A stretch of 64,000 bases of DNA, from the NCBI RefSeq assembly GCF_053078305.1, contig NZ_CP166879.1. One strand, given 5' to 3'. The notes below the pieces were generated by a model. That model did no database searches and was not told the DNA's origin. It worked only from the letters and a program-made list of their open reading frames with translations. Made by a program: the position numbers and the translations under genes. Positions 667 to 22,073 of the stretch are shown piece after piece (the stretch's first letter is position 1; the number at the start of each line of letters is the position of its first letter).

Positions 667-2265
667 TCATGAGCTCCCCGGATTGCACAACACAGCAGCT
701 CTGGCAGCATCAATGGCGATGAGCCCGGCAAGAAGATGTTCCATATCAGGCTGCAGACGCACCCTGTCACTTTCAGTTTTTGCGGACTTCATACGTAACA
801 GTTTCAGGCGGCGGGCTTTTACCTCAAATACCAGTTCAGGTTCCCATTGTGACAGGGTCAGCCGGGTTGCACGTTCATCCAGCTCCACAAGCAGATGCAG
901 GGCAAGGTCATTTTTTCCAGTCTGTTCGGCAACACGGGCCATCAACAGGCGCAGTAGCCAGTTGCTGCGGTCAGACTGAATACCGGGACGTGCCTGTAAC
1001 CAGCTTAAAGCGGCTTCTGTTCCTTCATTATCCGCAATCTGCAGGGCTTCCGGCTCAAGAGATAAAATGTCGTTATCTCCGGGAGCTGCCGTTATCGTTA
1101 CAGAAGGTTCTTCCGCCCAGCGTTCACCACACTCCATCACCTGCTGCTGTATCCAGCTCAGCGTCACGTCATCGGCAAACGGCATGCCGTCGTTAAAAGC
1201 CAGTGTCTCAAGCCCCGGCAGGCGCAGAAGCAATCCTTTCAGGTCATACTGAATAATGGCAGCATAATTTTCTTTTCCGGTCTGCAACAGCGCCTGATGA
1301 ATATACCACTGCAGGTCCAGCCACAGATGACTGGCTCCCCGGGCAAACATATCGTCACACTGTTCAAGCAGTGACAACCAGTTCTGCTGCAGATACAACC
1401 GTTTCAGTGACGCACGCCGGTCCGGCCCCGGTGGGGCAATACGGGTCCGTCCATCAGCAGATAACGGCGGTAACTGATGCAGCGTGTCATGCCGGACGCT
1501 TTTCATCAGTCGATGAGCCGCCAGCCAGCCCTCAGGCTGGTCACGCAGATATTTTGCCAGAACACGGGCCTGTGACAGCAGTTCCTGTCCGGAGGTGATG
1601 GCAGATAATGCCATGACGCTGCCGGATGTTACCGTCGGTGCCGGCGCGGCAGCCTCCTGAGGCACCACTGCATCAACACCACCGGCCTTCATCAGGCGAT
1701 TTTCAAGTGCCTGATATAACCCGTTCAGCACCGGGGCGGAAGCCTCATCCGTAAAGGTCTGTTCTGCCAGCCACAGCGCCCCGGCAATGCGCAGGGTATC
1801 CGCCTTCACCACCTCCGGATACAGAGACAGACTGTCCAGTATGCGGGCGCTGCATAACCACTCCAGCGCCGCCTTCCTGGCCCGTGACCGTTGTGGATGC
1901 AGGTGCTCTCCAAAACGCTGCAACAAACCGGTCAGCAGCTCCAGACCGTCGGCCAGACCTTTTTCACCATCCTGCCGCAGACGGGCCCAGATATACCAGG
2001 TCGCCACCCGGATATCTTTGGTTCTGGTGGTCAGTAATTTTTCTGCAAGCTGGCTGACAATTCCGGCATCGGCTCCGGAGAGTTTATTGACCTCTTCACG
2101 CATCTGCTGAAAATCATCATCGTACCCCGCATCATCACCTGCGGGATTATCTGGCGTCACGGGAGCAAGCCATTTATCCCACAGCGCAATACGCACCTGA
2201 GCCGGTTCAGCCACATCCCGGGGTGTCGTCTGGCATGCACTGAGGAGCGAATGAATGGAAGCCAT
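667..2265 (-). CDS. tssA: type VI secretion system protein TssA (ImpA N-terminal domain family)
   Basis: 532 aa ORF; N-terminal region resembles ImpA_N/TssA; ATGA start/stop overlap with tssM; sits in a T6SS cluster. Confidence 0.75.
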   Translation of the reverse strand: MASIHSLLSACQTTPRDVAEPAQVRIALWDKWLAPVTPDNPAGDDAGYDDDFQQMREEVNKLSGADAGIVSQLAEKLLTTRTKDIRVATWYIWARLRQDGEKGLADGLELLTGLLQRFGEHLHPQRSRARKAALEWLCSARILDSLSLYPEVVKADTLRIAGALWLAEQTFTDEASAPVLNGLYQALENRLMKAGGVDAVVPQEAAAPAPTVTSGSVMALSAITSGQELLSQARVLAKYLRDQPEGWLAAHRLMKSVRHDTLHQLPPLSADGRTRIAPPGPDRRASLKRLYLQQNWLSLLEQCDDMFARGASHLWLDLQWYIHQALLQTGKENYAAIIQYDLKGLLLRLPGLETLAFNDGMPFADDVTLSWIQQQVMECGERWAEEPSVTITAAPGDNDILSLEPEALQIADNEGTEAALSWLQARPGIQSDRSNWLLRLLMARVAEQTGKNDLALHLLVELDERATRLTLSQWEPELVFEVKARRLKLLRMKSAKTESDRVRLQPDMEHLLAGLIAIDAARAAVLCNPGSS

Positions 2266-5200
2266 CAGTCAGTCTCCTCCACGGAATCCCCGGCATCTTC
2301 GTCATTGCCTGTAAACGCTGACGTACCGGAGAGTTCGAAAACCATTTCCGGCAGAACAAAATTGCGGAGTTTCAGCAATACAAGCGGCCCTTCCCCCGCT
2401 TCAGTTCGCAGTGTGTAATTCAGCATACGACCGTCCTGCGCCTGCCAGCTCAGGCTCCAGCCACTGGCAACGCCCGGTGCGGCTTTCCGTCGGGCCATCT
2501 CAAGCAGACGTATCAGCCCCCAGCTTCCCGGCAGGTCTGCATACTGACGGGTACCGGCCTGAGTGCTTACCCAGCTTAAACTGGCGCCAGGTGCTTCCGT
2601 ATCAGCCGGCCAGGTAAATCGCTTCCATACCGGCATCTGATTAACATAAATCAGTTTCTGATTATCGGTTATCAGCGTCGTCTGCATCACACCGGCAGCA
2701 GTTCCCGGGCGCAGCTCAAAATGCAGCCCCGCGTTACCTGTGGTGAACGCCACATCCGCTATTTCACTCAGGGTATTGATGGCTTTCAGAAACGCAGGGT
2801 TGAATGTCAGCCCCCGGGTATTAATGGTATCCGGTACCCAGCGACTGCCTTCACTGTGCAACACACCACTCAGGTTATTCTGCAGGAAACGGGCAATACG
2901 TCCCGTGTCCGTATTCAGGTATTTTGCCAGCAGGGGAAGCGAAGCATCGCTGCTGACATTTTTAAACGGATAACGCCCGGAAAATGCATTATTCCAGCCA
3001 TCCACCACCGCAGTACGCCACCGGGCATTCAGACTTTCTGCCGCGGGCGTAAGAACCTGCTGCCACGCCTGCTCCATCGGGCGAACAAAGACCGTCTGTC
3101 CGAAGCCATACCACTCCTGTCCGAGTCCGGCAGCGGTCAGGCTACCGTAATCCCGGGTATCGGTTAAATCAACCGATTTCCCCTGCAATACTGTCTGTGC
3201 CAGCATCTGCATCATGGCCTGCGGGTCAGAAGAGCCGGCAATCTGTTGCAGACGCAGACGAACCTGTGTCACCCGGGTCAGATATGTCTGCAGATTCAGC
3301 ATATCCGCACTGTTGTTCTGATTATCCATCAGTGCAAGCACCGGCCCGAAAGTCGTCGCCAGAGGACCGTGAAGCCGGCTTTCCGGTACTGCCACTGGCT
3401 GTTTTTCCTGTGAAAGCAGGTTTCTGGCAGATTTAACCAGTGAATCAGTAACCGCTTCCCGGGGCTGGCCAGTACGCCCCTGAACCGCCAGCGTATTCAT
3501 CAGAGCAACCAGGGGGGACTGGCGCACATCAGCCATCAGCGTCAGTTGCTCTGTCACATCAGACAGCGTCTGAGCTTTACGCAGGTGCAGACTGTTCAGA
3601 AAATTCAGCCAGGCATTACCAAAATCAGCAAAATAGCGCGTTGTCAGGCGCTGTCTGAGTGCTTCCGGCGATACCGGTGACGGTGCCTTCTGCCTGCCAT
3701 CCGTCAGTACCCAGTCCATTTCTTCACGACGCTCATTAATCACGGTGTCTATCGCCGGCAATACGGCCTCTTCCCAGGCCTGGCGGGTGAACATACCGGG
3801 AACCACTTCATCCGTAAAAAAGAGGCGGGAGACATCAGTATCACCGGTCATATCCGTCAGACGCATATCCGCAAACTGATGTGCCACCCGTGCCAGCATT
3901 TTCTGATACAGCATGGCATCGCTGTTCTGTGTCCCCAGATGGCGAAGCAGCAGAGTTCTGCTCTGGCTGACCAGCTCTTCATCAGCCGTCAGCTTCCACT
4001 GAGGATGAGTAATAATCCCGGAGGCATAATACGCCAGCAACGTCGGGCCATTAGCCTGCCAGAAAACGGCACTCACACCGTCACGCTGTGGCCATTCCCG
4101 CATGAGCGTACGACTGAACCAGGCGGGCTCCATATGTTGCGGTTGCGCCAGCATCAGATACAGTCTGAGCTGGTCATATGCGGCTTTTGCCATTTTCCCC
4201 CGCTGCGGGCTGTCCGGAGGAAGACGAATAAATGTCCTGAGCTGCTGCTCAAGATGAGCAGCAGCGGCATCACGCAGTAAAAGATGTGCATTTTGTGCAT
4301 AAAGGGGCATTACGACCGCGAGCAGGTCTGCATTCTGATTCATACCGGCCCGCAGGTACCATGGCGCCCCGTGCTCCTCCCGGTACTGAAGGCGGGCCAG
4401 GGATTTCTGCAGATTCAGCAACGCCTGCAGACGTTCTGCAGGAGACAGTTGCTGGTTCTGAGCCGGACGAATCTGTTCCTGTACTTCAGCAACCAGACTC
4501 CGGTTTGCCAGAAAGGAAACCACCATTCCTGTTCCCTGAGCCATCATCAGTATGGCCGCCATAACGGCCAGACTTCTGCGCCAGTGATGACCTGTGCGGG
4601 AAGGCTGTAGCCGGACAGGTAATTGCTGCACTGTCTCCGGCAACGCCTCCCAGCGGTTATCCATTCGCCAGCGATGTCTGACACTTCGTTCACCGCCGAC
4701 AGTTGCCGGACTGAAAACAATACCCGCCAGCAACAACTGACGGTATGGACGGAGTAATACGGATAATGGCTCCACCACAGCATCAATATTTCGTCTGAAT
4801 CGCTCTGCCAGCGACAACAAAAAATAATACCGAGGGGCACAGCATATCTGCTGTATCCCCTGAGCAACAAGCCCGGGGAGCATGGCCTGTAGTTGTGCTT
4901 TCAGTTTGTCAGAACTACATTCTGCCGGCAGAAGGCATCCCACGGGCTGAGTAATACGCCCTCGCTCATCCGGACTCTCCTGCAGTGACCAGACATACAG
5001 CGGCAGACGCCAGCCAAGGCGCTCACAACATGAACTGACCGCACGGGAAACCCTGTCCAGGGCATCTTCTGTCAATGGTGCGGATAATGTTTCACTCAGT
5101 CCGGAAGTTACCCAGACAATGCCATCAACAGGCCGGTAACGCAGACGGCGTAACGCAGCCAGCCAGTCTGCGTTTTCCGGCTGCGAGGGGTCTCCTCCCC

Positions 5201-21549: not shown

Positions 21550-21575
21550 CAGCATGCTCTCTCTTAATCCGTTAA

Positions 21576-22073
21576 TCACACCTGTTCCGGCACCAGTGCA
21601 CTCAGTTCGTCACGTAAGGCCTGACTCAGTTCGGGATCCCGCAGAATTTTTTCCAGTTCTTTACGGAAAGTGGCGTTATCCAGCAGATTCGCCTTCAGAT
21701 CCCGCAGAAGGCTGCGCATGGCCAGCATGGCTTTAAGACGGGGAATTTGTCGGGCGATCTGCTCTGGCGTGAAGTCGTTCATATTGCGGAAAGTCAGGCT
21801 GATGCTTTCTTCAGAGCCATCACCGGCAAGCGTGTTCTCCACATTCAGGCGTACTGACGGCGAGATATCAGCCAGAACAGCATTAAAGTTATTTTTATTA
21901 ACATCCATTTTTATGCGCTCTGACAGCGGGCGCTCTTCCTGTCCGTTACTGAAATCACCGGCAACCAGCAGTTTGAGCGGAAGCTCCACTTTCTTCTGCC
22001 CACCACCTGTATGTAGGTCTAATTTCAGATTCACCCTTGCCTTCGGGATCTCATTCTGAAACGAACTGCTCAT
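21576..22073 (-). CDS. tssB: T6SS contractile sheath small subunit TssB
   Basis: 165 aa from the ATG at 22073 with CAGGAG upstream; VipA/TssB-like; first gene of the cluster. Confidence 0.85.
   Translation of the reverse strand: MSSSFQNEIPKARVNLKLDLHTGGGQKKVELPLKLLVAGDFSNGQEERPLSERIKMDVNKNNFNAVLADISPSVRLNVENTLAGDGSEESISLTFRNMNDFTPEQIARQIPRLKAMLAMRSLLRDLKANLLDNATFRKELEKILRDPELSQALRDELSALVPEQV

Follow-up and report, generated by a model that had tools for sequence, protein, structure and literature searches.

Short overlaps between neighbouring genes, with coupling by termination-reinitiation, have been described by Huber et al. in E. coli and Haloferax (2019, PMC6728339; 2023, PMC10666635). 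The commonest distance between same-strand neighbours in E. coli K-12 is -4 nt, followed by -1 and -8, and 707 of 2987 unidirectional pairs (24%) lie between -8 and +6, a range in which subunits of heteromeric complexes are 4.5-fold over-represented (PMC10666635). Of five native E. coli -4 pairs that were tested, four proved to be translationally coupled, while bioBF was initiated de novo, and a Shine-Dalgarno motif was not always needed for coupling (PMC6728339). Gaps of at least 15 nt largely abolished reinitiation in E. coli (PMC10666635), and ribosome profiling by Saito (2020), in the account that PMC10666635 gives of it in its discussion, was taken to argue that de novo initiation is dominant in this species. 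Among T6SS genes, the overlapping core genes tssF and tssG of Serratia marcescens, whose products interact, have been read as likely coupled (English et al. 2014, PMC4072051), and the 4-nt overlap of ssp6 and sip6 in the same species has already been published (Mariano et al. 2019, PMC6889166).

The window analysed here, a 64,000-nt stretch of contig NZ_CP166879.1, carries an EAEC Sci-1-type T6SS cluster on its minus strand (600-24400) with 96-99% identity to E. coli genomes, 042 among them. It is placed in this type by its synteny with, and high identity to, the characterised cluster, tle1/tli1 included, and by Pfam and NCBIfam matches; Tle1 is near-identical to PDB 6SJL and TssL to PDB 3U66. 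Between 667 and 22073 (minus) the cluster comprises, in order, tssB, tssC, tssK, tssL, tagL, hcp, tssH, an ssp6-like gene, a sip6-like gene, vgrG, tle1, tli1, the PAAR gene, a 382-aa ORF, tssM and tssA; tssF, tssG, tssJ and tssE are beyond the window start. The overlaps described below involve gene pairs other than the tssF/tssG pair of S. marcescens, which is outside the window. Gene order follows that of EAEC 042 Sci-1 (T6SS-1, VgrG-Tle1-Tli1), and six junctions have the same distances in both: tssK/tssL (-4), tssL/tagL (+2), vgrG/tle1 (-4), PAAR/382-aa (+3), 382-aa/tssM (-8) and tssM/tssA (-1). In contrast, the space between tssH and vgrG is occupied by genes for a 188-aa HExxH protein and a lipoprotein in 042 and by a 213-aa/75-aa pair in the window, tli1 is present in two copies in 042 and in one here, and TagL has 576 aa in 042 and 566 aa here. 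Pfam and NCBIfam scans returned no family match for the 213-aa, 75-aa and 382-aa ORFs. A single strong terminator-like hairpin is present in the cluster, after hcp, and the overlapping junctions leave no space for promoter or terminator elements.

The 15 junctions between the genes of this minus-strand cluster were all reconstructed. Exact 4-nt ATGA overlaps were found at 3/15 junctions: tssK/tssL (18658-18661, minus strand; tssL ATG 18661-18659, tssK TGA 18660-18658), vgrG/tle1 (9473-9476, minus; ATG 9476-9474, TGA 9475-9473) and the 213-aa/75-aa pair (12295-12298, minus; ATG 12298-12296, TGA 12297-12295). The sequence-only reading had assigned ATGA to these three junctions, as the rebuilt sequences bear out, and also to tssM/tssA, which actually reads GAC-TGATG-GCT, with a 1-nt overlap at base 2265 (2263-2267, minus; tssA ATG at 2265). 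This junction is the same in 042 and is ATGAGTGA (-8) in CFT073. The stop of the 382-aa ORF and the start of tssM share an 8-nt overlap, ATGAATAA (-8; 5647-5654, minus), also present in 042, so that the -4, -1 and -8 classes comprise three ATGA junctions, one TGATG and one ATGAATAA. The near-abutting junctions reported earlier were found as described, tssL/tagL as TAA-CC-ATG with a 2-nt spacer (+2; 18003-18010, minus; seen in the rebuilt junction and in PGAP) and PAAR/382-aa as TAA-ACC-ATG with a 3-nt spacer (+3; 6793-6801, minus). Orthologous tssL/tagL junctions are at +2 in 042, +3 in Cronobacter and Rahnella, +12 in E. coli MS15236 and -4 in Pantoea, and the PAAR/382-aa junction is at +3 in 042 and Cronobacter and at -1 in CFT073. 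In all, 7/15 junctions have distances from -8 to +6, and at 8/15 the genes are separated by 15 to 168 nt. Two overlaps were absent from the earlier list, that of 382-aa/tssM (8 nt) and a 14-nt overlap (-14) between the 3' end of tssH and the start of the 213-aa ORF (12923-12936, minus; ATG 12936). A candidate GTGA at 21576-21579, formed by the stop of tssB and the longest ORF for tssC, was rejected as an overlap; PGAP starts tssC at ATG 21555, and the alignment with a diverged TssC begins at ATG 21549.

At tssK/tssL the ATGA recurs without change in E. coli MS15236, Cronobacter, Rahnella and Pantoea, and C-ATGA is kept in five clusters with TssL identity down to 39%, among which the codons on either side and the N-terminus of TssL have diverged. 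A Caballeronia TssL-like locus has no upstream tssK and was uninformative on this junction. The ATGA of vgrG/tle1 is the same in EAEC 042 and at an Enterobacter vgrG/Tle1-like pair. The overlap of the 213-aa and 75-aa ORFs is likewise ATGA in Enterobacter and Rahnella sikkimica, and TTGA in Yersinia. The overlap architecture is real, conserved across genera and already well known.

This last pair, of which the 213-aa ORF occupies 12295-12936 and the 75-aa ORF 12071-12298 (both minus, both annotated by PGAP), resembles Ssp6/Sip6 in several respects. The effector candidate is about 213 aa long and has no known domain, a small ORF encoding two transmembrane helices lies directly 3' of it and shares a 4-nt overlap with it, and members of the family are found within T6SS clusters of Enterobacter. 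The 213-aa ORF shares 72% identity with a 203-aa protein of Serratia PRI-2C (P0012, Q5A_008905), whose length is that of the 612-bp Ssp6 homologue listed for PRI-2C (HMMER score 309) and whose locus-tag number fits the position; the tie to Ssp6 is indirect and runs through this PRI-2C protein, matched by length and locus tag. The two genes appear to encode an Ssp6-like pore-forming effector and a Sip6-like immunity protein.

The reading of these junctions depends on where the genes begin. PGAP annotation of near-identical genomes uses the same starts as the revised ones proposed by the sequence-only reading, and these are supported as well by the lengths of homologues, by Pfam profiles and by PDB constructs; the gene names of that reading also stand. 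The overlap itself, which had been offered as justification for the starts, is a circular argument. It is highly improbable that the overlaps are annotation artefacts, with real starts downstream (such as tssL Met19 at 18607 or a GTG within tssA) and non-overlapping genes. The NCBIfam TssA profile does start only at residue 29, which favours a later tssA start, but a 56%-identical orthologue is co-linear with the TssA N-terminus from residue 16 onwards. The start of the Pfam DotU profile lies about 7 residues past ATG 18661, and profile position 6 falls on TssL residue 13, so that a start at Met19 would truncate the domain; the crystal construct of PDB 3U66 starts MNKPVISR, from the same Met as ATG 18661, and the Cronobacter tssL frame, read by eye, is closed by a stop 12 codons 5' of the ATG with no start codon between. 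In PDB 6SJL, Tle1 is present as residues 1-560, beginning with the Met of ATG 9476, and its N-terminal strand serves as a structural element in the complex with VgrG. The 213-aa protein has homologues of a uniform 210-213 aa with a conserved N-terminus (MDSAKEIA), and these and the 75-aa homologues start at the same position as in the window. For TagL, the match to a 37%-identical orthologue begins only at residue 91 in the long ORF, equivalent to residue 59 in the 566-aa protein, and is uninformative on the start. One may also ask whether the cluster, beyond normal operons, is specially rich in overlaps that serve as a dedicated control of the machine's stoichiometry. In favour of this, 7/15 junctions between -8 and +6 exceed the 24% of K-12 (binomial P=0.043), and the cluster is enriched over neighbouring island genes (3/34; P=0.005). 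However, the genome-wide figure takes in pairs from different operons, and the dcw operon has 8/11 junctions in this range and an equal number, three, at -4 (Fisher P=0.25 versus the T6SS cluster). The -4 class alone gave 3/15 versus 6/70 in a K-12 sample (P=0.13), and the ABC-transporter, cyd, csd and fuc operons beside homologous loci have the same junction types. Since the cluster is marginally over the genome-wide rate and no different from dcw, we dropped overlap richness as a special T6SS feature and regard such dedicated control as improbable; with 3/15 at -4 and 7/15 between -8 and +6, barely above K-12 and the same as dcw, the earlier description of the overlaps as "pervasive" was too strong.

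We instead consider it likely that these are the ordinary short overlaps of starts and stops in a long E. coli operon for a multi-protein machine, most likely with termination-reinitiation. Where the distance is -4, -1 or -8, and possibly where it is +2 or +3, a terminating ribosome would stay on the mRNA and restart at the adjacent AUG, aided where present by a Shine-Dalgarno sequence within the upstream gene's 3' end, and output of the downstream protein would thereby be tied to that of its upstream partner. The junctions resemble those of Huber et al. in their motifs, same-strand and probably operonic context and complex-forming partners, and apparently also in having a Shine-Dalgarno inside the upstream gene at most junctions; no structural difference separates the two sets. 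Partners that meet at these junctions include the known binders VgrG-Tle1 and TssL-TagL (TagL directly binds TssL; PMC8253398), and an effector next to the putative protein for its immunity. We observed geometry, conservation and start sites, and we infer coupling because of published tests, which were made on other E. coli pairs; the overlap is a geometry compatible with coupling rather than evidence of it. A competing account, which we judge rather unlikely, is that the overlaps are neutral by-products of genome compaction and start-stop drift, with de novo initiation from each gene's own Shine-Dalgarno and negligible coupling. It fits the recognisable motifs at the starts of tle1 (GGAG at -11 to -8, within vgrG; -6.4 kcal/mol), tssA (GGAGGAG at -15 to -9; -9.3 kcal/mol), tssM (AGGA) and the 382-aa ORF, of which the good tle1 and tssA sequences could act independently, as well as the de novo start of bioBF, itself a -4 pair, and the drift in geometry between orthologous clusters at tssM/tssA, tssL/tagL and PAAR/next gene. 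The 75-aa ORF is preceded by GGUGG at short spacing (-5.8 kcal/mol). Against neutrality, the tssK/tssL ATGA is invariant in diverged genera although the stop codon is free to vary, most of the -4 pairs tested in E. coli were coupled, and distances peak sharply at -4, -1 and -8 genome-wide. The tssL Shine-Dalgarno, moreover, is nearly absent (-3.2 kcal/mol) and its initiation region costs 14.3 kcal/mol to open, which suggests that tssL relies on the upstream ribosome. Predicted RNA structure (opening energy, unpaired probability and MFE z-scores) did not differ systematically between overlapped and non-overlapped starts, a result that speaks neither for nor against structure-based coupling. Because 8/15 junctions have gaps of at least 15 nt, most of the cluster is not coupled by overlap, and the claim of coupling "across the cluster" overstated its extent.

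Junctions of the vgrG/tle1 type might also have a role beyond stoichiometry, namely cis-preferential, co-translational loading of an effector onto its own spike, which we think doubtful. The vgrG/tle1 junction would encode the interacting elements back to back, the C-terminal TTR domain of VgrG and then Tle1's N-terminal beta-strand that completes the fold, and because these elements are adjacent at the junction, a reinitiating ribosome would hand nascent Tle1 to the VgrG just made. The same logic could extend to tssK/tssL, tssL/tagL and effector/immunity pairs.

The overlaps in this cluster are real but ordinary, since they represent the commonest packing of bacterial operons, and they leave the current understanding of T6SS and of translational coupling unchanged. 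The corrected junctions and starts are sound for annotating the cluster, in which GTG 21579 and the starts of the long ORFs should no longer be used, and the genes at 12071-12936 may be labelled a probable Ssp6-like pore-forming effector and its immunity gene. In-frame deletions or insertions in tssK, vgrG, tssM and the 213-aa gene should keep at least the last 15 nt of the upstream gene; if the upstream 3' end is lost, there is a risk that TssL, Tle1, TssA or the immunity protein will be lost through polarity.

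All long ORFs within 667-22097 lie on the minus strand, and the RefSeq/PGAP annotation of near-identical genomes gives their order as tssB, tssC, tssK, tssL, an OmpA-family gene (tagL), hcp, tssH, hypothetical genes of 213 and 75 aa, vgrG, tle1, tli1, PAAR, a hypothetical 382-aa gene, an ImcF-related gene (tssM) and tssA. Pfam and NCBIfam scans returned concordant profiles (DotU, OmpA, PAAR, DUF2931 [= Tli1], TssA, VgrG and TssM), so the gene names assigned by the sequence-only reading were correct. Among complete E. coli genomes, a minority matched 600-24400 at 96-99% identity, with at least 80% covered in 42 of 5,426; these matches include EAEC 042, the experimental model of the Sci-1 (T6SS-1) system. 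The exact tssK/tssL variant (18100-19200) occurs in only ~70 of the 5,426, and in ~1,300 genomes the commoner T6SS cluster of E. coli supplies a counterpart that is 64-68% identical.

We rebuilt every junction from the best-supported starts, counting overlaps as negative distances. In operon order, tssB/tssC and tssC/tssK are separated by +20 and +15 nt, tssK/tssL overlap by 4 nt (ATGA), and tssL/tagL, tagL/hcp and hcp/tssH lie at +2, +34 and +168 nt. The 213-aa gene overlaps tssH by 14 nt and the 75-aa gene by 4 nt (ATGA); 75-aa/vgrG follows at +78 nt, vgrG/tle1 at -4 nt (ATGA), tle1/tli1, tli1/PAAR and PAAR/382-aa at +19, +31 and +3 nt, 382-aa/tssM at -8 nt (ATGAATAA) and tssM/tssA at -1 nt (TGATG). 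Three of the four ATGA overlaps originally claimed are therefore exact, and the fourth, tssM/tssA, belongs to the 1-nt class (GAC TGATG GCT). The near-abutting tssL/tagL and PAAR/382-aa junctions were as described, and two overlaps (382-aa/tssM and tssH/213-aa) had gone unlisted. The range first given for the overlaps ended at a GTGA (21576-21579) formed by the tssB stop and the longest tssC ORF; we rejected this as the tssC start, as the PGAP start is ATG 21555 and the alignment to a 79%-identical TssC begins with the Met at 21549.

Several other features of the cluster emerged. A strong terminator-like hairpin at 15747-15770 (minus strand; 10-bp stem with 7 G-C pairs, then ATTTTTCTTT) begins 9 nt past the hcp stop, within the hcp-tssH gap, and may be an attenuator that limits the downstream genes to a lower output than Hcp. 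Within 7097-9476 (minus strand; comparison loci L001 8635-10316 and L008 10777-12275), tle1 is intact (560 aa); in the closely related STEC2018-553 it is annotated as frameshifted. The window has one copy of tli1 and EAEC 042 has two. The conserved 382-aa ORF (5647-6795, minus strand) has an N-terminal hydrophobic segment and matched no Pfam or NCBIfam family; it is also present in 042 and Cronobacter, with a larger counterpart in CFT073.

Independent evidence backed the shorter starts for TssL, Tle1, TssA and the 213-aa and 75-aa proteins. The TssL crystal construct 3U66 opens with MNKPVISR (i.e., ATG 18661), and DotU profile position 6 aligns to TssL residue 13, so that initiation at Met19, the next one along, would cut into the domain. 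The Met at 9476 is also the first residue of the Tle1 chain (residues 1-560) in cryo-EM entry 6SJL. TssA is co-linear with a 56%-identical orthologue from residue 16, and GGAGGAG lies 8 nt upstream of its ATG. About 200 homologues of the 213-aa protein are 210-213 aa long and share the N-terminus MDSAK, and the 75-aa ORF begins at ATGA in Enterobacter and Rahnella, where its counterparts have no upstream in-frame start. These data show that the shorter starts are sufficient and consistent rather than proven native N-termini, as the constructs and annotations all stem from predicted starts.

The three true ATGA overlaps are stable features, tssK/tssL strikingly so, because they recur in orthologous clusters while other tight junctions drift. 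The tssK/tssL junction reads GCGGTnyTGCGnnC-ATGA in six places (the window, 042, a 66%-identical E. coli cluster, Cronobacter, Rahnella and Pantoea vagans, whose TssL is 39% identical), even as the TssL N-terminus varies (MNKPV, MKKDM, MKKDE, MSKIN, MSNQN). ATGA also joins vgrG/tle1 in 042 and an Enterobacter vgrG/Tle1-like pair, and the 213-aa/75-aa genes in Enterobacter and Rahnella sikkimica (TTGA in Yersinia). In contrast, tssL/tagL drifts between +2, +3, +12 and -4, tssM/tssA between -1 and -8, and PAAR/next gene between +3 and -1.

The pair at 12071-12936 (minus strand) has the look of a pore-forming T6SS effector of the Ssp6 kind (213 aa; 12295-12936) with a Sip6-like immunity gene (75 aa; 12071-12298). 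Neither ORF matched any Pfam or NCBIfam family; the larger protein includes a hydrophobic stretch rich in Gly/Ala, and the smaller includes two hydrophobic segments. Ssp6 of Serratia marcescens (Mariano et al.) is likewise an effector without a recognisable domain, followed with a 4-nt overlap by sip6, an unannotated 204-bp two-transmembrane immunity ORF, and family members lie within Enterobacter T6SS clusters (PMC6889166). The window pair shares the two-transmembrane ORF and the 4-nt overlap, and its homologues share the Enterobacter T6SS context. We favor this reading because P0012, a 203-aa protein 72% identical to the 213-aa ORF, comes from Serratia PRI-2c, the strain of a 612-bp gene in the published Ssp6 homologue table (PMC6889166); this support for family membership is indirect. 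Homologues fill the tssH-vgrG slot in Enterobacter, Yersinia and Rahnella, whereas EAEC 042 has an unrelated pair there (a 188-aa HExxH protein and a lipoprotein), making this a variable cargo slot. Tiny ColE1-like plasmids carry more distant homologues beside small two-transmembrane ORFs. On Erwinia pyrifoliae pEP2.6 and Serratia pJSRIV004_2 (loci L011 3-946 and L013 156-1265; ~30-42% identity to the 213-aa protein) this small ORF is convergent, an arrangement resembling the immunity genes of pore-forming colicins; on pJSRIV004_2 a 63-aa ORF directly upstream may, by its look, be an Hcp C-terminus.

Calling the overlaps "pervasive" was an overstatement. Seven of 15 junctions fall between -8 and +6 (binomial P=0.043) vs 707 of 2,987 same-strand pairs (24%) in E. 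coli K-12, where -4 is the commonest distance, then -1 and -8 (PMC10666635). For -4 alone, the count is 3/15 vs 6/70 among the first 70 pairs of that paper's supplementary table (P=0.13). In K-12, the dcw operon from mraZ to ddlB (+1, -4, +15, -14, -4, -7, +2, -1, -4, +53, -8) has almost the same profile (Fisher P=0.25), and the same kinds of junction occur in ordinary operons adjoining homologous loci (csdAE, ygdD-rlmM, fucUK, cydAB, ABC transporters); the pattern is thus the usual look of a long operon. Overlaps are less dense among the adjacent island genes (3/34 in range; P=0.005), a contrast that reflects operon genes vs loosely packed island genes.

Next to the T6SS is a microcin-type locus (27040-37653) encoding a peptidase-ABC exporter (706 aa), an HlyD-family adaptor whose long ORF overlaps the exporter's (-8 as annotated in strain 04-00955), an enterochelin-esterase-like protein and a glycosyltransferase; ORF sizes match those of the mchI/mchB/mchF (microcin H47) region of 04-00955. 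The island extends through 48474-63657, where it carries an Ag43 autotransporter (48474-51671) and, judged by ORF-size correspondence with 04-00955 only, CP4-like genes, among them one for a CbtA-family toxin, which shares 4 nt (58930-58933) with the DUF5983 gene; it ends beside the core gene cadC (62119-63657). ARAGORN found no tRNA genes across the window.

Short ATGA/TGATG overlaps and their role in coupling are already well documented; within T6SS clusters, overlaps had been reported and read as coupling before, for tssF/tssG (PMC4072051) and ssp6/sip6 (PMC6889166). The overlaps reported here are real and conserved but were partly mis-described, and the finding is ordinary and already known. 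Termination-reinitiation, in which a ribosome ending at UGA would restart at an AUG 1-4 nt upstream, is by analogy the best-supported mechanism here, and we infer coupling at this locus. Published tests showed such coupling for four out of five native -4 pairs of E. coli; Shine-Dalgarno removal usually lowered reinitiation, and ~20-40 nt spacers abolished it (PMC6728339, PMC10666635). De novo initiation with neutral overlaps is an unlikely alternative overall, though more plausible for tle1 (GGAG, -6.4 kcal/mol) and tssA (GGAGGAG, -9.3 kcal/mol); the 75-aa ORF has GGUGG (-5.8 kcal/mol). The Shine-Dalgarno of tssL is almost nil (-3.2 kcal/mol) and its initiation region costly to open (14.3 kcal/mol), and tssL is the best candidate for obligatory coupling; overlapped and non-overlapped starts could not otherwise be told apart by predicted RNA structure. 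Known direct partners among the tightly joined pairs are VgrG-Tle1, TssL-TagL and the putative effector-immunity pair. Contacts have been reported for TssK-TssL and TssM-TssA as well. These partner-encoding pairs fit the published finding that closely spaced E. coli genes are 4.5-fold enriched for subunits of complexes (PMC10666635).
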